Positions 4,212 through 49,482 are shown, numbered from the stretch's first letter. The stretch is DNA of 64,000 bases from Candidatus Nomurabacteria bacterium (GCA_020631955.1 JACKGL010000003.1:8059-72058), one strand, 5' to 3'. A program made the numbers and translations. The notes: generated by a model not told the origin, from the sequence alone.

Positions 4212-4546
4212 AAGAGGTACCGGATAACAGCGTCCGCCCAAGGTGGATGAGGAAAGTCCGAACACACACATTTGTAAAAATGTAGCACGGTAGCGGGTAA
4301 CACCCGTCCTCCGACCCAGGTCGGAGAGAGGTGCGAGCAGTGACGCCAAAGTCGAAAGATGGAGGATTCCTTTATGGAATAATTTTATGGCAACATAAAA
4401 GTGAAACGGCTAAATCCTTACCTGTGTGCAAGACCGTATTCTCTGGTTTCCAGAGTTTGAGTCGCTTGAGGTCTGGAGCAATCTAGATCCTAGATAAATT
4501 GTTATCCTTCACTTTGTGAAGACAGAATTCGGCTTATAGGTACAAA
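4212..4546 (+). ncRNA. rnpB: RNase P RNA (bacterial M1 RNA)
   Basis: Universal motif GAGGAAAGTCCG at 4249-4260 and ACAGAATTCGGCTTATA at 4522-4538. 5' GGTAC (4216-4220) can pair with 3' GGTAC (4539-4543) as P1. End coordinates are approximate. Confidence 0.88.
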
Positions 4547-4556
4547 AAAATATGAA

Positions 4557-5157: not shown

Positions 5158-5231
5158 CAACAGAAAACCCCGACTAGGTCGGGGTGCTCTGTTAGGCATT
5201 TGTATTATTAATTTGGAGTGATTAAACTCAC
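5158..5231 (-). ncRNA. Candidate small RNA (about 75 nt) delimited by a strong promoter and a terminator
   Basis: Minus-strand TTGACT (5261-5266), 17-bp spacer, TATACT (5238-5243) with TGC just upstream. Terminator ACCCCGAC/GTCGGGGT (5167-5187) followed by TTTTCTGTT. No ORF. Confidence 0.45.
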
Positions 5232-7891: not shown

Positions 7892-7960
7892 TTTTATTAA
7901 AATTAAAGAAGCCCGCCCGTACCGAAAGATACGTTCGGGCGGGTGTCACGGAGCATAATC

Positions 7961-15804: not shown

Positions 15805-16860
15805 ATGAATCGAGGATCTGTATCTGTTTTACTTGGTGGTATGTTGCTGAGTGTTTGCATGATTTTATTCAATATACTTGGTTGGGGTGGAAAAGAGAAA
15901 GAAAAAGAGTCTGAAAAACCAAAAAAAGAATACTATGTAAACCTACCTGACACTCTCACTATCACAGAAGGTGAAGTAGTCACAGTGAGATTTACCTGTA
16001 GTCCTGATCTTTATATAGATTCTGTCATCTGGCATGATAAAGAAGTGAAGTGTTTTGGTAAAGACACAACCCACTTTTTCTTTATTGGATGTCAGGCCGG
16101 GGTAGAGGATTCTATAGAAAGTTATACTATCTGGATGCAAGGCTTTGGTTTTTCTGGATATGTTAGGATAGAGAAAAATGATACTTTCATCGTCAGAGCC
16201 AAAGGTGTGAGTGATTATGAATATGAAAGAAGTAGTTACTTAGACTCTTTGGAGAAAATAAACTTTTCCTTTGTACCTATATCTTCTCCAGTATTTACCG
16301 ACCTCTTTATCATGCCGCTGGTACAGTATAAGACCACTTCTCCTTATGGTGTGATCAGAAAAATATTTCCAGACGGCAGTAAAAGATATCACTCTGGTAC
16401 TGATATCGCTCCTTTGATATCTGGCACAAAAGGAGTGCATGTCTTATCTGTGAATGACGGTATAGTGGTGGCTACTGGTTTTGATCCCGTCTACAGTGGT
16501 AACTTTGTCATCATAGACCATGGTGGAGGTATAATCTCTTCTTACTCACACTTAGAGAAAATCTTAGTAGAAAAAGGTGAGCTTGTACTAAGAGGAGAAA
16601 CTATAGGTATCATGGGAGAAACAGGTAACGCTCAAGGTATACACTTGCATTTTTCGCTTCGGGTGAACATGCAGCTGGTAGACATGGAATGGTTTGTGGA
16701 AAATCAAAAATCCTTGTTTGGTTTTATGATAAAAAGCAAAGCCAGATATTGGGAAAGAATAGATCTTTTTATAAAAAGGCCACACTTGGCCTTTTTTTAT
16801 TATATTGATTGCGTGATAAAATATTATAATAATGTTAGTAAATATCGAAAAAAATACTAA
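15805..16860 (+). CDS. M23 family metallopeptidase (LytM-like)
   Basis: HSGTDIA, IIDHGGGIISSYSHL and GNAQGIHLHF motifs. The last ~28 codons read through a terminator hairpin (16776-16799), so the 3' end is uncertain. Confidence 0.85.
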   Translation: MNRGSVSVLLGGMLLSVCMILFNILGWGGKEKEKESEKPKKEYYVNLPDTLTITEGEVVTVRFTCSPDLYIDSVIWHDKEVKCFGKDTTHFFFIGCQAGVEDSIESYTIWMQGFGFSGYVRIEKNDTFIVRAKGVSDYEYERSSYLDSLEKINFSFVPISSPVFTDLFIMPLVQYKTTSPYGVIRKIFPDGSKRYHSGTDIAPLISGTKGVHVLSVNDGIVVATGFDPVYSGNFVIIDHGGGIISSYSHLEKILVEKGELVLRGETIGIMGETGNAQGIHLHFSLRVNMQLVDMEWFVENQKSLFGFMIKSKARYWERIDLFIKRPHLAFFYYIDCVIKYYNNVSKYRKKY

Positions 16861-16870
16861 ATGGTGGGGT

Positions 16871-19444
16871 ATGTCTACAGAGGATGTTTTGAATGCTCTT
16901 CAGACAGATGAAAATATAGGTCTTTCTGACAAAGATATAAAAGAAAGAAGAGATATATATGGGCTCAATATTCCTTCAAGGAAAAATAACAACTCTCCTT
17001 TGAAAATACTACGCAACCAGTTTGCAAGCCCTTTGGTTATACTTCTGATTTTTGCTTGTGGATTTTCTTTCTTTTTGGGTAAATACATAGAAGGATATTT
17101 TGTGTTTTTTGCGATACTGTTAAATGTGGCCTTAGGTTTTTGGCAAGAATACAAAGCTGACAACTCTATAAAAAAACTCGAGAGACTTATTGTCGATAAT
17201 ATAAAAGTAATAAGGGACGGTAAGAAAGAGATAATAGATTCTAAGTATCTTGTAATGGGGGATGTTGTTTTCCTAAAAAGTGGAGATAAAGTCCCGGCTG
17301 ACATGAGACTCATACACCAAAAAGAAGTGATGTTGAACGAAAGTATTCTTACCGGAGAATCTCTGACTGTAAGTAAAAGTCCGCACAAGATATCCGAAGA
17401 AGTATCTGTTTCAGATAGAGTAAATATGTTATATGCTGGTACATCTTTAGAAAACGGTGAAGCGACAGGTGTCGTGGTGTCTATAGGTGCCAACACAGAG
17501 ATAGGTAAGATAGCCGACCTTGTGGGTAAAGAAGACCTAGCCGAGCAACCAGTGCTTTTAGCAATGAAAAGTTTTACTAGAAAGCTTATATTTTTCTTAG
17601 TGTTTTTGGGTATTGCTATATTTGTACTTGGCACTTTTAGAGGAGAAGACATATCTAGCATGATATTTTTAGCTATTGCTGTAGTTGTATCTGCTGTGCC
17701 TGAGAGTTTGCCTATAGCTATGAGTGTGGTTATGTCTAGAGCAGCCAATGACTTGGCCAAGTCTGGGAGTGTTGTGAGAAAAATATTAGTGACCCAAACC
17801 ATAGGAACAGTAGACACTATCCTTACGGATAAGACAGGCACACTAACCGAAGGCATACTCAGACTCGATAAAATAATACCTTTACATGATAAGAAAGAAG
17901 AAGATGTATTTTATTCTAGTATCACTTGTACCGAAGCCTTGGTGGACCTAATGGGTGGTAAACCAAAAGTACTTGAAGGCAACTCTTTAAACAGAGCACT
18001 ACTTAGCCATCTTTTTTCTAAGTCTGAAGGAAAAGATATATATAAAAATGTAAAAGTACATAAAAGGGTTTATTTTAATTCCAAAATAAAATATGGTGCG
18101 GTGGTTTGTGAGTATGAAAACGGAGATTTTTATTTAAATATATTAGGAGCACCAGACATCATTTTAGATATTTGTGATGAAAGTCAGGATTTGAAAAAAG
18201 AGATAGATACAAAAATACAAGCTGAAGCTGAGGCCGGCTCACGTGTTTTGGGAGTCTTACAAACAAAAATATCCAAAGAGCTCGCTTTATCAGAAACTAG
18301 TATTGAAAAAATATTGGCTGATTCTAAGATGTCTTATCAAGGACTTATTTCTTTCAGAGACAAACTAAGAGACGGAATATTATCGTCTGTAAAAAATCTT
18401 CATATAAACAATGTGGACACTATACTTTGTACTGGAGATCATCCTGGTACTGCGCTATCTATCGCCAAAGAGGCTGGCATAGTAGAGAAGAGCTATTTAA
18501 AAGTCTTAACAGGTAAGGATCTTTCTAGTATGGATAAAGATCGGTTTGAGATAGAGATATTGTCATGTAAGGTTTTTGCTAGAGTGACACCAGAAGACAA
18601 GTTAAGAATATTGGAAGTTTTGCAGAAAAACGGAAAAATAGTCGCTGTCACAGGAGATGGGGTAAATGATGCTCCGGCTTTGCGCAGGGCTCACGTAGGA
18701 GCTGCTATGGGTAGCGGTAGTGATGTGTCTAAAGACGCTTCTGATATTGTGGTAATCGATGATAACTATTCTACTATAGCTCAAGCTGTCGTTTTAGGTA
18801 GAGGAGTGTTTCAAAAAATAAGAAGTGTAATAGTGTATCTTTTAGCCGATGTCTTCGACGAGCTCGTGCTTATAGGAGGGGCACTTTTGGTGGGCATAGT
18901 CGTACCTCTTGGGGCTCTGCAAATACTTTTTGTAAAATTCTTTTCAGATATATTTCCAGCTATGTCTTTCACATATGAAAAGTCTCATCAAGACCACTTT
19001 ATATCGAGACCTGCTAGGGTGGATTCTATATTTGATAAAGATGTGAAAATATTCACTATAGTCAGAGGTATAGTGTCTAGTATGGTTTTGTTTTTGGTTT
19101 ATTATTTCTTGAGTAAGAGTAATTATGATCAAAACATAGTTCGGACTTTTATTTATCTTTCTTTTGCTACTTATATTTTGTTTATTGCTTTTTCTGTAAG
19201 GAATCTAGATAGACCAGTGTCTAAAATAAAACTACTAGGCAACAAACAACTTTTCTTCGGTGTTTTGTTTGGTTTTACTATGGTAATATTGTCTGTATAT
19301 ATACCGTTTTTGCAAAATATATTGGGTACTGTGTCACTACCTTTTATATGGATAATATGGACCGTAGTGATAGGTGTATTTAATCTTTTCCTTATAGAAT
19401 TCATAAAAAGTTTATTAAACAGGAAAAACACATATGCTAGCTAA
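16871..19444 (+). CDS. P-type cation-transporting ATPase (P2/Ca2+-ATPase-like)
   Basis: Cation_ATPase_N-like N-terminus, TGES, DKTGTLT phosphorylation site, TGDGVNDAPAL hinge. ATG 16871 preferred (GGTGGGG upstream) over 16832. Confidence 0.93.
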   Translation: MSTEDVLNALQTDENIGLSDKDIKERRDIYGLNIPSRKNNNSPLKILRNQFASPLVILLIFACGFSFFLGKYIEGYFVFFAILLNVALGFWQEYKADNSIKKLERLIVDNIKVIRDGKKEIIDSKYLVMGDVVFLKSGDKVPADMRLIHQKEVMLNESILTGESLTVSKSPHKISEEVSVSDRVNMLYAGTSLENGEATGVVVSIGANTEIGKIADLVGKEDLAEQPVLLAMKSFTRKLIFFLVFLGIAIFVLGTFRGEDISSMIFLAIAVVVSAVPESLPIAMSVVMSRAANDLAKSGSVVRKILVTQTIGTVDTILTDKTGTLTEGILRLDKIIPLHDKKEEDVFYSSITCTEALVDLMGGKPKVLEGNSLNRALLSHLFSKSEGKDIYKNVKVHKRVYFNSKIKYGAVVCEYENGDFYLNILGAPDIILDICDESQDLKKEIDTKIQAEAEAGSRVLGVLQTKISKELALSETSIEKILADSKMSYQGLISFRDKLRDGILSSVKNLHINNVDTILCTGDHPGTALSIAKEAGIVEKSYLKVLTGKDLSSMDKDRFEIEILSCKVFARVTPEDKLRILEVLQKNGKIVAVTGDGVNDAPALRRAHVGAAMGSGSDVSKDASDIVVIDDNYSTIAQAVVLGRGVFQKIRSVIVYLLADVFDELVLIGGALLVGIVVPLGALQILFVKFFSDIFPAMSFTYEKSHQDHFISRPARVDSIFDKDVKIFTIVRGIVSSMVLFLVYYFLSKSNYDQNIVRTFIYLSFATYILFIAFSVRNLDRPVSKIKLLGNKQLFFGVLFGFTMVILSVYIPFLQNILGTVSLPFIWIIWTVVIGVFNLFLIEFIKSLLNRKNTYAS

Positions 19445-26869: not shown

Positions 26870-26945
26870 TGGCTCCGCGGGTAGGGCTCGAACCTACGAC
26901 CAATCGATTAACAGTCGACCGCTCTACCAACTGAGCTACCGCGGA
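26870..26945 (-). tRNA. tRNA-Asn (GUU), CCA encoded
   Basis: Cloverleaf TCCGCGG-TA-GCTC..GAGC-G-GTCGA-CTGTTAA-TCGAT-TGGTC-GTAGG-TTCGAGC-CCTAC-CCGCGGA-G-CCA. Terminator hairpin at 26838-26868. Confidence 0.93.
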
Positions 26946-27015
26946 ATATGTTTTATTCCACGTTACGCTCAGTAGACTGAGCCCTACCTCTCGGTAGGCA
27001 GGTACCGCGGAATAT
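26937..27015 (-). repeat. 13-bp direct repeat of the tRNA-Asn 5' end (TACCGCGGAATAT) bracketing a 53-nt CCTGCC-type hairpin segment
   Basis: Identical 13-mers at 26937-26949 and 27003-27015. The intervening minus-strand sequence CCTGCCTACCGAGAGGTAGGGCTCAGTCTACTGAGCG includes a degenerate D-arm copy. Confidence 0.7.
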
Positions 27016-42315: not shown

Positions 42316-45165
42316 ATGATGAAGAAGTACGATCATAAGGATATTGAGAAGAAATGGCAGGACAGATGGGAAGAGGAAGGTTTATACAAAACACCCAACA
42401 AGGTTCCAGGAAAAGACAACTACTACACTTTGGTGGAGTTTTCTTACCCTTCGGGGAACTTGCACGTAGGACACTGGTACGCTTTTTCTGTACCAGATAT
42501 GTTTGCAAGATACAAAAGGATGAGAGGGTACAACTCTCTATATCCTATGGGTTTTGATTCTTTTGGACTACCTGCAGAAAGAGCCGCTATATTACATGGT
42601 AAAAATCCAAAAGATTGGACTTATAAAAATATGGAATACATGCAAAACCAGCTACGTAGTATGGGAGCTAGTTTTGATTGGGACAGGAGAGTGATCACCT
42701 CTGATCCAGAGTATTATCGCTGGACTCAATGGATGTTCAACCAATTTTACAAAAACGACTTAGCTTATAAAGCCAACACAAAAGTGAACTGGTGTCCTAC
42801 TGATAAGACTATACTAGCCAACGAACAGGTGATAGATGGTAAATGTGATAGGTGTGGTACAGAAGTAGAACAAAAAGATCAAGAGCAGTGGATGCTCAAA
42901 ATCACAGAGTTTGCAGATGCGCTTACTGATGATCTAGATGGTCTTGACTGGAATGACGCGATAAAAGAAGCTCAAAGGTCATGGATAGGTAGGAGTGAGG
43001 GAAGTGAGATAAGTTTTAAGCTTTCTTCTGGAGACTCTGTAGATGTTTTTACTACTCGTGCGGATACGCTTTTTGGTGTCACATATGTTGTGCTTGCTCC
43101 AGAGCACCCACTGGTAAATAAACTTCTTGATCAAGTAGAGAACAAACAAGAAGTAGAAAAGTATATAGAAGAAACAAAGAAAAAATCAGAACTTGATAGG
43201 CAACAAGCAAAAGAAAAAACTGGAGTAGAACTAAAAGGTATAACGGCTACCAACCCTGCCTACCGGCAGGCAGGCCTGCAAAATGACGAAGAAGTCCCAG
43301 TTTGGATTGCGGACTATGTGCTTGCCGGGTATGGAACAGGTGCGGTAATGGCGGTACCAGCTCACGATGAAAGAGATTTTGAGTTTGCAAATAAATATGG
43401 ATTACCAATCAAACAAGTAATAGCACTCCAAATAGGGGAAAGAATTATTAATGCAAAAGAACGTTTAGGTGTTTCAGCAATTATAAGGAATTCTCAGGGT
43501 AAAATACTTGTTCAACAAAATGAACACCAAAGAGGGATATTGCATTCATTACCAGGTGGAGGTGTAGAAGAGGGTGAAAATGTAGAAGAGGCTTTAATCA
43601 GAGAGATTAAAGAAGAAACCGGATATACTGATCTTGAAATAGTTTTTTGTAAAGGGGCTTATGAATATAATTTTAACTCTCCTGAACGTGGTTATGACCG
43701 GAAATTAACCGAATTTTTATATGAGGTAAAATTAATTTCTGATAAGAATGAAGGAAGACATCTTACTGATAAAGAGAAAAGTATTATAAAAGATGATCTG
43801 TGGTTGGACCATAACGAAGCTATTAAAATTTTGAAACAATCAAATAATTTCTGCGGATACGCGGAGGCTATTTTAATGGAAAGAAAAAATAATTATTTAG
43901 ATGGAATACTCGTGAATTCAGGTAAATTCGACGGTCTTACATCCCAAGAAGCGCGGGAAAAAATTACAGAATTTGTTGGAGGAAAAATGGTAAAGACTTA
44001 CAGACTTCGTGACTGGGGGATAAGCCGCCAGAGATATTGGGGTTGTCCGATACCGATAGTTTATGACCCTGAAGGTAATGCTCATGCCGTGCCTGACGAG
44101 CATCTGCCTTGGCTGCTACCTGAAGATGTAGATCACACGCCAGACGGAACAGCACCACTAGCCAGGAGTAAAGAGCTTTTTGAAAGAACAGAAAAAATAT
44201 TTGGTAAAGGTTGGAAGCCAGAGGTAGAGACTATGGATACATTTGTAGATTCTTCTTGGTATTTTTATCGTTATCTTGATCCAAAAAATGAAAAAGAGTT
44301 TTGTAGTACTGACTCACAGAAAGATTTTATGCCGATAGATATTTATTTTGGTGGAGCAGAACACACCACTATGCACCTTTTGTATTCTCGTTTTTGGGTA
44401 AAGGCACTTCGTAAAATAGGTCTTACAGATATAAACGAACCTTATACAAGGAGAATCAACCGCAGCCTTATACTAGGACCTGATGGCAACAAAATGAGTA
44501 AGAGTAAAGGTAACGTGATAGACCCAGACGAAGTCGTAGGTTTTGTTGGAGCAGACACTGTACGTATGTATTTGGCATTTATAGGCCCTTATGGAGCTAC
44601 TAGCCACTATCCTTGGGATCCGAACGGTGTAGTAGGTATAAGAAGATTTATAGAAAGATTTTGGAAGACTACTGATTTTATAGTGGAGGATGATACAAAG
44701 TCACTAGACACTCTTTTACACAAGACTATAAAAAAAGTCACAGATGATATAGAAAGATACAAATTCAACACAGCCATATCTGCTATCATGATATTTATCA
44801 ACGAAGTAGAAAAGGAAAAGAAGATAAGTAAGGAGCAATATTCTACTATGGTCAAACTTCTTTCTCCTTTAGCTCCTCATGTGTCAGAAGAAATATGGAG
44901 AGAAGTTTTAGGTAACAGCAAATCTGTTCACCTAGAAGACTGGCCGGTATATGATGAGTCTCTTATAAAAGAAGAAGAGGTCAACATATCTGTATCTGTA
45001 AATGGTAAGTCTAGGTCTTTGGTAAAAGTGCCTTTTGATAGTGAAGAAGAATTTGTCTTGAGTGTAGCGAAAGAAGATCAAAATGTCTCTAAGTGGATAG
45101 ATGGGAAAAATATAAAAAAGATTATTTTTGTTCCCAATAAAATAATAAATATAATTACAGATTAG
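42316..45165 (+). CDS. leuS: Leucine--tRNA ligase carrying a ~160-aa Nudix-domain insertion and a 7-aa palindrome-encoded insertion in the CP1 editing domain
   Basis: HIGH-type SGNLHVGH, editing-domain blocks TTRADTLFGVTYVVLAPEHP and GTGAVMAVPAHDERDFEFA, YRLRDWGISRQRYWG, KMSKS. 949 aa, longer than typical bacterial LeuRS. Confidence 0.95.
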   Translation: MMKKYDHKDIEKKWQDRWEEEGLYKTPNKVPGKDNYYTLVEFSYPSGNLHVGHWYAFSVPDMFARYKRMRGYNSLYPMGFDSFGLPAERAAILHGKNPKDWTYKNMEYMQNQLRSMGASFDWDRRVITSDPEYYRWTQWMFNQFYKNDLAYKANTKVNWCPTDKTILANEQVIDGKCDRCGTEVEQKDQEQWMLKITEFADALTDDLDGLDWNDAIKEAQRSWIGRSEGSEISFKLSSGDSVDVFTTRADTLFGVTYVVLAPEHPLVNKLLDQVENKQEVEKYIEETKKKSELDRQQAKEKTGVELKGITATNPAYRQAGLQNDEEVPVWIADYVLAGYGTGAVMAVPAHDERDFEFANKYGLPIKQVIALQIGERIINAKERLGVSAIIRNSQGKILVQQNEHQRGILHSLPGGGVEEGENVEEALIREIKEETGYTDLEIVFCKGAYEYNFNSPERGYDRKLTEFLYEVKLISDKNEGRHLTDKEKSIIKDDLWLDHNEAIKILKQSNNFCGYAEAILMERKNNYLDGILVNSGKFDGLTSQEAREKITEFVGGKMVKTYRLRDWGISRQRYWGCPIPIVYDPEGNAHAVPDEHLPWLLPEDVDHTPDGTAPLARSKELFERTEKIFGKGWKPEVETMDTFVDSSWYFYRYLDPKNEKEFCSTDSQKDFMPIDIYFGGAEHTTMHLLYSRFWVKALRKIGLTDINEPYTRRINRSLILGPDGNKMSKSKGNVIDPDEVVGFVGADTVRMYLAFIGPYGATSHYPWDPNGVVGIRRFIERFWKTTDFIVEDDTKSLDTLLHKTIKKVTDDIERYKFNTAISAIMIFINEVEKEKKISKEQYSTMVKLLSPLAPHVSEEIWREVLGNSKSVHLEDWPVYDESLIKEEEVNISVSVNGKSRSLVKVPFDSEEEFVLSVAKEDQNVSKWIDGKNIKKIIFVPNKIINIITD
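43255..43274. repeat. 20-nt GC-rich palindrome CCTGCCTACCGGCAGGCAGG inside leuS
   Basis: Matches 19 of 20 positions of the palindrome at 49183-49202. Together with flanking bases it encodes the extra peptide AYRQAGL (43258-43278). Confidence 0.85.
43423..43902 (+). other. Nudix hydrolase domain nested in LeuRS (aa ~370-529)
   Basis: Intact Nudix box GGVEEGENVEEALIREIKEETGY. Flanked by LeuRS blocks ANKYGLPIKQVI and GILVNSGKFDGLTSQEA. Confidence 0.8.
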
Positions 45166-49162: not shown

Positions 49163-49181
49163 TGGTGCCCTTGCCAGGAAT

Positions 49182-49203
49182 CCCTGCCTGCCGGCAGGCA
49201 GGG
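49182..49203. repeat. Perfect 22-nt palindrome CCCTGCCTGCCGGCAGGCAGGG, splitting the T-loop of tRNA-like copy A
   Basis: Self-complementary 11+11 nt; very GC-rich in an AT-rich genome. Confidence 0.9.
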
Positions 49204-49298
49204 AACCAGAACCACTCCTCCCTGCTTCGCTGAAGCTACAAAGGACACAGTAGGACGGAGTTGTTGCCCGCCTGCCAAATTAATACATTTACAAATTG

Positions 49299-49370
49299 TG
49301 TCTCTGGTAGGAATCGAACCCACAATTACTCCTTAGGACGGAGTCGTTATATCCATTTAACTACAGAGAC
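49299..49370 (-). tRNA. tRNA-Arg (CCU), intact (copy B), nested within copy A
   Basis: GTCTCTG-TA-GTTA-AATGGATA-TAAC-G-ACTCC-GTCCTAA-GGAGT-AATT-GTGGG-TTCGATT-CCTAC-CAGAGAC-A. No encoded CCA. Confidence 0.88.
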
Positions 49371-49482
49371 ATTTATTTTTACAAGCCGGGCAGGTATCCA
49401 TTTAACTACAAGGGCTTATAAATTAAGACAGACTAAAATCCGCTTGTTAGCGGATTTTAGCATATATGATATTTTTTTAAAA

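Follow-up and report, generated by a model that had tools for sequence, protein, structure and literature searches.

Short palindromic elements are known from several kinds of genome. Repetitive extragenic palindromic (REP) sequences and BIMEs with their RAYT enzymes, and likewise REPINs, are scattered, non-autonomous hairpin repeats of 20 to 40 nt that leave no target duplication and for which movement in trans, by an enzyme of the nuclease type, has been proposed. Rickettsia palindromic elements (RPEs) are about 100 to 150 bp long, are restricted to Rickettsia and its relatives and insert in frame in conserved protein genes, where they are translated as extra surface peptides. Yeast mitochondrial GC clusters, fungal double-hairpin elements and "byp" elements are GC hairpins of AT-rich genomes that lie between genes, in rRNA and tRNA regions and in frame within genes; they are organellar, lineage specific, about 30 to 60 bp long and mobile by an unknown mechanism. 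Nucleases of the GIY-YIG superfamily have been linked to tRNA genes and to branched DNA: SegB homologues show significant colocalization with tRNAs and promote segmental amplification of a tRNA segment (PMC13096335), and stand-alone prokaryotic GIY-YIG domains have been grouped with Slx1, which cuts branched DNA in a structure-specific manner (Dunin-Horkawicz et al. 2006, PMC1564403). Here we describe a 20-nt GC-rich palindrome (the 20-mer) inside leuS, the gene of leucyl-tRNA synthetase (LeuRS), in 64,000 nt of DNA from Candidatus Nomurabacteria bacterium (GCA_020631955.1 JACKGL010000003.1:8059-72058; this whole stretch is called the window). We conclude that the palindrome in leuS is probably a solo, non-autonomous copy of a 20-bp hairpin module that belongs to a widespread selfish cassette invading tRNA genes.

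The window is AT rich (GC content about 0.36) and bacterial according to its class A RNase P RNA at 4217 to 4547; eleven 20-nt stretches in all reach a GC content of at least 75%, and the copies of the 20-mer are among them. The pattern CCTGCCTRCCGGCAGGCAGG, searched with mismatches allowed, matched without mismatch at 43255-43274 and 49183-49202 and with 3 mismatches on the minus strand at 26983-27002, while 100 dinucleotide-preserving shuffles of the window gave no match at all. The palindrome in leuS is thus the same element as the copies at two tRNA loci, as a preliminary description of this DNA had proposed. The features of the leuS locus are as follows.

42316 to 45165, plus strand: leuS, the gene in which the palindrome lies; its product, leucyl-tRNA synthetase, contains an internal NUDIX module (open reading frame [ORF] of 949 aa; Pfam tRNA-synt_1, Anticodon_1 and NUDIX).
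43255 to 43274, no strand assigned: solo 20-nt GC palindrome CCTGCCTACCGGCAGGCAGG in leuS (A8 variant; its hairpin contains one A.C mismatch).
43260 to 43280, plus strand: 21 extra nucleotides, that is, 7 codons (AYRQAGL or YRQAGLQ), relative to empty-site orthologues (MAFFT alignment; empty site in locus L004).

The LeuRS encoded in the window is 100% identical to a protein annotated as Candidatus Nomurabacteria and reads ...TNP-AYRQAGL-QNDEEVPVW at the insert. Among 120 homologues listed, 108 were legible at this site, and 105 of them lack the 7 extra residues, which are present only in the query itself (P0001), in the protein of a sister strain (P0002) and in P0008, a protein 61% identical to the query; the latter two read NP-AYRQAGLQ[N/D][D/G]EEV, as does the query. 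The nearest further relative, P0003 (L004), has the empty site AACCCCGTAAATGGAGAAGAA. The 6-residue spacing NP-ANGEEV-PVW occurs in 104 of the 108 proteins, which agrees with the expectation that removal of AYRQAGL leaves the spacing of the homologues. The preliminary description had counted an insert of 21 nt encoding AYRQAGL. This length was correct; the palindrome itself, however, makes up 20 nt, the 21st being a further nucleotide that restores the frame, and MAFFT places the insert at 43260-43280 with an ambiguity of 5 nt owing to a CCTGC repeat. The tryptophanyl-tRNA synthetase (TrpRS) gene in L098 likewise carries 20+1 nt. The insert DNA is identical in the window, in the sister strain (L001) and in L002, whose flanks have diverged (LeuRS 61% identical). 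Together with further copies of the palindrome in other genomes (see below), the orthologues that lack AYRQAGL-like residues bear out the view that a mobile, GC-rich palindrome was inserted in frame in leuS.

What does the insert do to the protein? In an AlphaFold model of LeuRS (40 sequences, mean pLDDT of 81.9), residues 315 to 321 lie between strands 303 to 312 and 326 to 332 with a pLDDT of about 80, so the insert is predicted to lengthen a beta-hairpin turn. The 20-mer contains no stop codon in any of the six frames (read directly, it gives PACRQAG, LPAGRQ and CLPAGR). Presumably the copy in leuS survives because 20+1 nt keep the frame, no frame is closed and the seven residues are tolerated, and we infer that it is a translated, tolerated passenger that is neither spliced out nor functional.

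Two other LeuRS homologues carry insertions in this part of the protein. P0116 has a different and longer insertion at the same turn, NPAYAKLGGASSANGEEVYPAEAVVPVW, and P0023 has one about 20 residues upstream of it, RQ-IGSKDPSTGSGLG-KTG; the region around the turn may be a recurrent landing or tolerance site. A separate observation concerns the NUDIX module (PF00293) at 43398-43932. These approximately 535 nt do not align at all between the window and L001, whereas the flanks share 99.3% identity as far as 43397 and 94% from 43933 onward, and P0003 (768 aa), the closest other relative, has no such module. From this comparison of sequences, the module looks like a swappable insert.

The 20-mer is found far beyond this genome. 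We scanned 596 Gb of sequence, one genome per species, for exact matches (all counts are lower bounds) and recovered the 20-mer in at least 120 genome stretches from at least 9 phyla, where by our own calculation about 2 matches would be expected by chance. Among the matches listed, the hosts are Bacteroidota, several groups of Patescibacteria, Omnitrophota, Planctomycetota, Gamma- and "Delta"-proteobacteria, Nitrospirota, Chloroflexota, Bdellovibrionota and Ignavibacteriota. They include the cultured isolates Winogradskyella echinorum, Olivibacter oleidegradans and Flagellimonas yonaguniensis, and the same 20-mer is present in independent assemblies from NCBI, ENA, JGI and Logan. In addition, 48 stretches of viral contigs contain it, with up to six copies on a single contig of 29 kb. 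The family sequence is CCTGCCT[G/A]CCGG[C/T]AGGCAGG, a discrete 20-nt unit, and the leuS copy belongs to this family as its A8/C13 variant, which accounts for 25 to 37 of 186 copies, depending on the strand read. Folded as single-stranded DNA, the A8 variant reaches -6.1 kcal/mol and the perfect 20-mer -8.0 kcal/mol.

Most copies are intergenic, and 14 of 132 lie within 300 nt of a tRNA gene. Others sit inside conserved genes, namely those of FtsK, dTDP-glucose dehydratase, TrpRS, a histidine kinase and two homologous membrane proteins, the last two at the same site. An all-against-all BLAST comparison of the loci found no longer element shared around the copies, only the 20-mer itself, nested copies, tRNAs and a second hairpin family, and no Rfam family matched any of the hairpins at the gathering threshold or at an E-value of up to 1.

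The surroundings of the 20-mer recur. In a layout seen repeatedly, a 5' tRNA fragment with the 20-mer in its D-arm is followed by a spacer and an intact copy of the same tRNA, and in L056 the spacer is a GIY-YIG ORF of 79 aa. A hidden Markov model (HMM) built from such ORFs identified GIY-YIG ORFs within 100 nt of the 20-mer in 6 loci. In a seventh (L093, 3861-4160), the 20-mer is followed by a complete GIY-YIG domain, in frame, within hsdS, the gene of a Type I restriction S-subunit; the 20-mer and the nuclease domain of this fusion together lie between the two target-recognition halves. The association also holds in reverse. Of 80 metagenome loci that were chosen only by similarity to the GIY-YIG protein, 51 have the 20-mer within 200 nt upstream (exact in 40, as a near copy in 11), at a median of 26 nt before the ATG; a further 9 have the 20-mer only downstream, which brings the loci with a 20-mer or near copy within 200 nt to 60 in total. 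In most of the other 20 loci a different GC hairpin takes this position. The distance from hairpin to ATG varies little (interquartile range of 19 to 34 nt for 53 hairpins in 51 cassettes). A direct repeat of 11 to 40 nt, mostly the 5' part of a tRNA, flanks the ORF in about 65 of the 80 loci; where a 20-mer lies upstream, the upstream copy of the repeat ends at the 20-mer. An intact tRNA (Leu, Arg, Phe, Lys, Asn, Met and others) typically begins 0 to 27 nt past the stop codon of the nuclease.

The cassette thus consists of a 5' tRNA part with the 20-mer at an unpaired position, usually in its D-loop, a GIY-YIG ORF of about 78 aa and an intact tRNA, the whole unit measuring about 350 bp. A mirror-image layout also occurs (intact tRNA, nuclease, 3' tRNA fragment bearing the hairpin) and includes one tRNA-Arg(CCT) cassette; tandem cassettes exist, as do cassettes without the ORF (L010, L048 and the first unit of L247). 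In every case with the flanks present the hairpin is in the redundant tRNA copy; three cassettes run off their contigs. The encoded nuclease is a bare GIY-YIG domain (Pfam PF01541, E-values of 8e-14 to 3e-15). A profile search of the PDB gave the UPF0213 proteins EF2693 and BH0048 as best matches (1ywl, 4.7e-13; 1zg2, 9.4e-13), followed by SLX1 with E-values of 1e-5 to 6e-4 and I-TevI with only 3e-3, which places the cassette nuclease closest to the Slx1/UPF0213 type and predicts that it is structure specific. Proteins beside identical 20-mers share a mean identity of 55%, with a minimum of 39%, and among the 8,000 candidates scored the family comprises at least 7,851 clusters (90% identity), many of which lie on short contigs. 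We found no description of such a cassette in the searchable literature, which covers few subscription journals, but only analogues (SegB and the Slx1 classification); the cassette appears to be undescribed so far.

The two other copies of the 20-mer in the window lie at tRNA loci whose features are listed here.

49163 to 49415, minus strand: "outer" tRNA-Arg(CCT) pseudogene with three insertions, in the T-loop, the anticodon loop and the D-loop (comparison with L001).
49183 to 49202, no strand assigned: perfect 20-mer CCTGCCTGCCGGCAGGCAGG in the T-loop (TTC|GATT) of the broken tRNA-Arg(CCT).
49220 to 49250, minus strand: 31-nt insertion in the anticodon loop with a small GCTTC/GAAGC hairpin, sequence CTGTGTCCTTTGTAGCTTCAGCGAAGCAGGG (minus strand).
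49266 to 49394, minus strand: 129-nt insertion in the D-loop, consisting of an intact tRNA-Arg(CCT) of a different allele and AT-rich spacers.
49298 to 49370, minus strand: the intact "inner" tRNA-Arg(CCT) (ARAGORN; Rfam tRNA, 61.5 bits).
26946 to 27015, minus strand: putative nuclease-less cassette relic 5' of tRNA-Asn (the same layout, with or without the nuclease ORF, occurs in L010, L048, L184, L232 and L247).
26870 to 26945, minus strand: intact tRNA-Asn(GTT), directly downstream of the relic (ARAGORN, Rfam).

The first of these loci had been described as tRNA-like. The resemblance is real, and the comparison with the sister strain reveals that it is a tRNA-Arg(CCT) gene broken by insertions. 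L001 is 94 to 99% identical to the window over 22 kb and has this gene intact and uninterrupted (16839-16913); when the three insertions (49183-49202, 49220-49250 and 49266-49394) are removed, the outer tRNA of the window equals the L001 gene save for two 1-nt deletions. The presence of the palindrome is therefore polymorphic between the two strains, and against the empty site of L001 the insertion in the T-loop is exactly 20 nt long and has no target duplication. The CCTGCC and GGCAGG ends reported around the D-loop insertion are also present, with the start of the block moved to 49266; they are two half-palindromes, CCCGCCTGCC (9/10) and GCCGGGCAGG (8/10), and the tRNA cargo thus sits at the center of a 20-mer. 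The inner tRNA is presumably the working copy. In L004 the inner tRNA is accompanied by AT-decayed versions of the same ends and only a remnant is left of the outer gene, and a tRNA-Arg(CCT) cassette in L220 carries a near copy at or beside the same T-loop site (GGTTC|GATTCC) in its downstream fragment. The 31-nt sequence in the anticodon loop did not recur in any fetched locus, and its fold is not unusual (z = -0.5).

At the second locus, the 13-mer ATATTCCGCGGTA (4 nt of leader plus tRNA nt 1 to 9) is duplicated upstream of tRNA-Asn and is followed by a decayed 20-mer CCTGCCTACCGAGAGGTAGG (26983-27002), a diverged D-arm and about 20 nt of filler. Judged by their sequences, both tRNA loci are probably relics of cassettes that lost the nuclease. 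The association of the palindrome with tRNA genes would then not be incidental, because the tRNA copies are the remains of a tRNA-invading cassette whose hairpin interrupts a redundant fragment.

In tRNA genes the mode of insertion is the same wherever filled and empty sites can be compared: interrupted and intact tRNAs of the same cassette, like the window and L001, differ by exactly 20 nt without target duplication. Of 63 mapped insertions in tRNAs, most lie after nt 14 to 24, in the D-loop and at its edges, and the others are found at nt 9, 11-12, 26, 32, 44, 55-59 and 64-68; the 20-mer therefore prefers positions that are largely unpaired or at the edges of cloverleaf loops. Copies also nest at the center of other copies. 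Across the 186 copies, the same base is present on both flanks in 37% versus 25% expected, with no consistent duplication. The 20-mer is depleted in coding DNA; among loci with a GC content of up to 0.5, 11 of 117 copies lie in ORFs, all of them survive in frame, and nine are read as LPAGRQ. Removal of the 20 nt restored no ORF among the copies examined.

Several other ideas about the insertion were dropped. That the 20-mer always sits in the loop of a hairpin was given up after the folding of its flanks, compared with random positions, gave a weak and nonsignificant enrichment. The half-palindromes were also considered as transposon ends that carry cargo, but nearly all isolated pairs of half-sites are nested 20-mers and the tRNA-bearing insert of the window (49266-49394) is the only clear case of cargo. 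A primary insertion of 22 nt with a 2-nt duplication was abandoned too, the five "del19/del22" restorations of ORFs being intergenic read-through (e.g., ParB|Ndk). Finally, the 10-nt halves could be read as the back-to-back terminal repeats of a MITE or DDE derivative, but neither the filled/empty pairs nor the 186 flanks show a duplication.

The window also holds a hairpin of a second GC-rich family that crosses phyla.

7912 to 7943, no strand assigned: solo copy of the second family (CCCGCCCGTACCGAA..TACGTTCGGGCGGG; CCCGCCCGTACCGAAAGATACGTTCGGGCGGG), just 5' of an ORF start.

This family (CCCGCCCGTACCGAA..GTACGTTCGGGCGGG) occupies the same D-loop position in the GIY-YIG/tRNA cassettes of L207, L235 and L238. 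In L058, from a metagenome-assembled genome (MAG) of a gammaproteobacterium, it occupies the D-loop of a tRNA-like copy next to an ORF that weakly resembles GIY-YIG, and near-identical solo copies are present in L067 and L111 (Bdellovibrionales and other genomes).

Further hairpins were seen next to the 20-mers or in unrelated genomes. A GC hairpin motif, CCCTCTCC..GGAGAGGG followed by GGGGTGAGG, adjoins 20-mers in L102 (about 1260-1330), L150, L151, L021 and L080 and has one copy in frame in a histidine kinase; it may be a third family of the same kind. Two short GC hairpins are common to unrelated genomes, GGCTCTCCGCCAGCTGGCGGAG..GGAATGACAAA (L018, 3327-3362, and L059, 2957-2992) and TAGATTCCCGCTTTCGCGGGAATGACAT (L021, 3063-3090, and L089, 5618-5645). 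The latter resembles the dRS3-type repeat of Neisseria, ATTCCC-N8-GGGAAT.

How could such a module move? Perfect GC palindromes are able to form extruded hairpins or cruciforms, and the single strand of a tRNA gene can adopt a cloverleaf fold. Slx1-type enzymes cut branched substrates of this kind, which is why we propose both structures as targets of the cassette nuclease. We hypothesize that the structure-specific nuclease would cut DNA folded in either way and that the hairpin or the whole cassette would then be installed through repair or ligation by the host, with the tRNA sequence serving as a portable homology that is conserved across phyla. The intact tRNA of the cassette would keep the host alive. 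Solo copies would be mobilized in trans or be stray products, and one such stray 20-mer would have landed in the LeuRS turn between two predicted beta-strands. This scheme, in which nuclease cutting and host repair or ligation copy the hairpin and solo copies move in trans, is a tentative proposal, possible but short of likely.

A number of observations weigh against our interpretation or against this mechanism. The window and L002 have the same +1 position in leuS, which could mean that the insert arose once and was then transferred, instead of having been inserted twice independently; local identity does not distinguish common descent from independent insertion, the region being conserved in any case. 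At the leuS site there is no obvious fold, nor does it resemble a tRNA. Among the ORFs of at least 40 aa in the 64-kb window, all of which were searched with the HMM, no GIY-YIG ORF was found, and 7 kb of extra flank at one of its ends contain a 16S rRNA gene and no 20-mer, this flank not having been scanned for the nuclease; a nuclease acting in trans in this genome is therefore assumed. The flanks of the 186 copies show no target motif, T at -1 alone being depleted, and a local hairpin context is only modestly enriched (23% versus 15% at -12 kcal/mol or below; Mann-Whitney P = 0.15). We know of no GIY-YIG enzyme that inserts DNA. Lastly, the invariance of the 20-mer would not be accounted for if the shape of the hairpin alone mattered.

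Which other explanations could account for the palindrome? The hairpin may be mainly a functional cis-element of the cassette, with solo copies as by-products, a possibility that is compatible with our interpretation and to which we give a limited chance. It could stop the tRNA fragment from competing with the intact tRNA, block the recombination between repeats that would delete the nuclease, or stabilize or process the nuclease mRNA, whose start lies about 26 nt downstream. The near-constant placement before the ATG, the other GC hairpin at the same place in cassettes without the 20-mer, and the confinement of the hairpin to the redundant copy and never to the intact tRNA all speak for such a role. 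A structural role, however, would allow compensatory changes, yet 40 of the 80 cassettes keep 20 identical letters beside proteins that are 39 to 55% identical, and the solo copies in ORFs and intergenic DNA would be left unaccounted for. A hairpin without transposition of its own is improbable. It would be carried as a passenger of a cassette that homes by short-patch gene conversion or abortive repair between tRNAs, and copies outside tRNAs would arise by rare illegitimate repair. The cassette would be an ideal donor for short conversions of other tRNA genes or fragments, the hairpin being flanked by tRNA on both sides ([nt 1-20]-hairpin-[nt 21-37]); dead tRNA copies do accumulate several hairpins, and 14 of 132 copies are at most 300 nt from a tRNA gene. 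But most of the 186 copies lie in intergenic or coding DNA that does not resemble a tRNA, where they nevertheless form exact 20-mers with clean junctions; two lineages that are only 61% identical have the insert at the same place in leuS, and nesting at the center of another copy calls for a site preference rather than homology.

The preliminary description had compared the palindrome with REP-like or RPE-type families and suggested that a RAYT-like partner be sought. An REP-like element moved by a RAYT or IS200-type Y1 (HUH) transposase that acts on single-stranded hairpins now seems very improbable to us. The "peel-and-paste" chemistry of HUH enzymes would fit an exact insertion without duplication, a hairpin element and a preference for unpaired DNA, and a scan of about 1.6 Mb of fetched loci for Y1_Tnp (PF01797) with approximate query sequences found Y1_Tnp-like ORFs in 4 of about 250 loci, one of them (L051) with a 20-mer about 40 nt upstream. 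L051 is the only one of the four in which the ORF adjoins a 20-mer, this 20-mer lies inside the different REP hairpin that belongs to the RAYT gene itself, and the RAYT gene is frameshifted. Three sampled genes of the same RAYT family, on 18 contigs, have their own species-specific hairpins and no 20-mer. The association with GIY-YIG is far stronger in both directions, and the 20-mer lacks the hallmarks of REPs, being identical across phyla, perfectly palindromic and present inside genes. The suggested kinship with lineage-specific REPs or RPEs fails as well: the identical 20-mer occurs in at least 9 phyla and on viral contigs, and its recurrent partner is a minimal GIY-YIG nuclease, not a RAYT/Y1 transposase. 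Removal at the RNA level, by a mini-intron or by translational bypass that leaves the interrupted genes working, is scarcely credible. Bypassed or spliced GC-rich inserts are found in organelles, and archaeal tRNAs have introns at D-loop and T-loop positions. Against this, all 11 copies in ORFs keep the frame and none needs 20 nt removed, the hairpin-bearing tRNA copies have an intact duplicate beside or within them wherever flanks are present, the outer tRNA of the window also has point deletions, and no Rfam family matches the hairpins. The least probable explanation, with a negligible chance, is a native, lineage-specific loop of LeuRS that is palindromic by accident, or an assembly or sequencing artifact. 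Nothing favors it beyond the presence of the palindrome in MAG data, and the absence of matches in shuffled windows, the 105 of 108 homologues without the insert and the recovery of the 20-mer from independent assemblies and cultured isolates contradict it.

Elsewhere in the window, terminator-like hairpins AACCCCGACC(CT/TA)GGTCGGGGTT are present at 227-248 and 5168-5187 and also in L253 (4771-4793). The first 130 nt are part of a tandem repeat of about 63 nt that is found upstream in L253 (6490-6871). With 100.5 bits, the RNase P RNA barely exceeds the gathering score of 100; it has a GC-rich hairpin at 4301-4324, one of few GC islands in this DNA.

If our interpretation of the leuS palindrome as a stray cassette module is true, one sequence of 20 letters is the mark of a selfish system of very large extent, whose activity reshapes tRNA genes in Bacteroidota, Patescibacteria, Omnitrophota, Planctomycetota and Proteobacteria, in the viruses of these bacteria and in further groups. 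Such a system would account for tRNA "pseudogenes," nested tRNAs, short hypothetical "endonuclease" ORFs beside tRNAs and contig breaks at tRNA loci, as well as GC-rich islands and small, conserved-looking peptide insertions in the housekeeping proteins of AT-rich genomes. In practice, a search with the 20-mer is an easy way to find cassettes and their relics, the system offers a testable case of a structure-specific, Slx1-type nuclease as a mobility factor, and the palindrome is a natural insertion that is open in six frames. A bolder view, which we regard as rather doubtful, is that no mobile DNA so far seen in bacteria is smaller than this 20-bp palindrome, a mere hairpin or cruciform that codes for nothing. 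It would be cut and placed by a 78-aa, Slx1-like GIY-YIG nuclease that reads the shape of DNA (extruded hairpins and the cloverleaves of tRNA genes) and not its sequence, and the pair would form a new class of mobile element that relies on neither a transposase, an integrase nor a classical homing endonuclease. Recognition of shape would then explain the crossing of phyla, the targeting of any tRNA and the 7-residue "GLPAGRQ/PAYRQAG" loops in essential proteins.

How does the system compare with those already described? The 20-mer shares the traits of REPs and REPINs given at the outset. REPs, however, are species-specific, imperfect and extragenic palindromes with hundreds of copies per genome that flank a RAYT gene, whereas the 20-mer is perfect, spans at least 9 phyla, occurs 3 times per 64 kb in the window, lies inside genes and tRNA fragments and has a GIY-YIG partner. 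With RPEs it has in common the translated, in-frame insertion in conserved genes; with 20 bp, many phyla and a tie to tRNA-gene cassettes, it is set apart from them in size and range, and we know of no nuclease cassette linked to RPEs. It resembles the mitochondrial GC clusters and their kin in composition and in location, and we know of no dedicated, linked nuclease gene for those elements.

The nearest studied analogue of the cassette is SegB of phages T4 and T6, whose GIY-YIG gene lies beside tRNAs and whose product acts on tRNA-gene DNA and drives the inheritance or duplication of the adjoining tRNA segment. SegB is a larger, I-TevI-type phage enzyme with a separate DNA-binding domain; the cassette, in contrast, encodes a bare 78-aa Slx1/UPF0213-like domain, resides in bacterial chromosomes, duplicates part of a tRNA and contains a conserved GC hairpin. 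Bearing on a SegB-like homing model, the nuclease ORF lies between direct tRNA repeats, the locus is polymorphic between the window and L001 or L004, and the intact tRNA would retain any tRNA-based target. Slx1 and UPF0213 proteins are regarded as vertically inherited housekeeping repair factors, whereas the cassette clade behaves as a multicopy selfish gene at tRNA genes. Elements that integrate at tRNA genes, which they regenerate from a tRNA segment of their own, likewise use the tRNA gene as target and leave a partial duplicate beside an intact, working copy. They are kilobases long, encode tyrosine or serine integrases and usually duplicate the 3' end; the cassette, unlike them, is about 350 bp long and lacks an integrase, the part that it duplicates is usually the 5' one, and the hairpin interrupts its spare fragment. 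The combination of a minimal Slx1-like nuclease, a partial tRNA duplication and a 20-bp palindrome that is invariant across phyla thus distinguishes the cassette from every system compared here.

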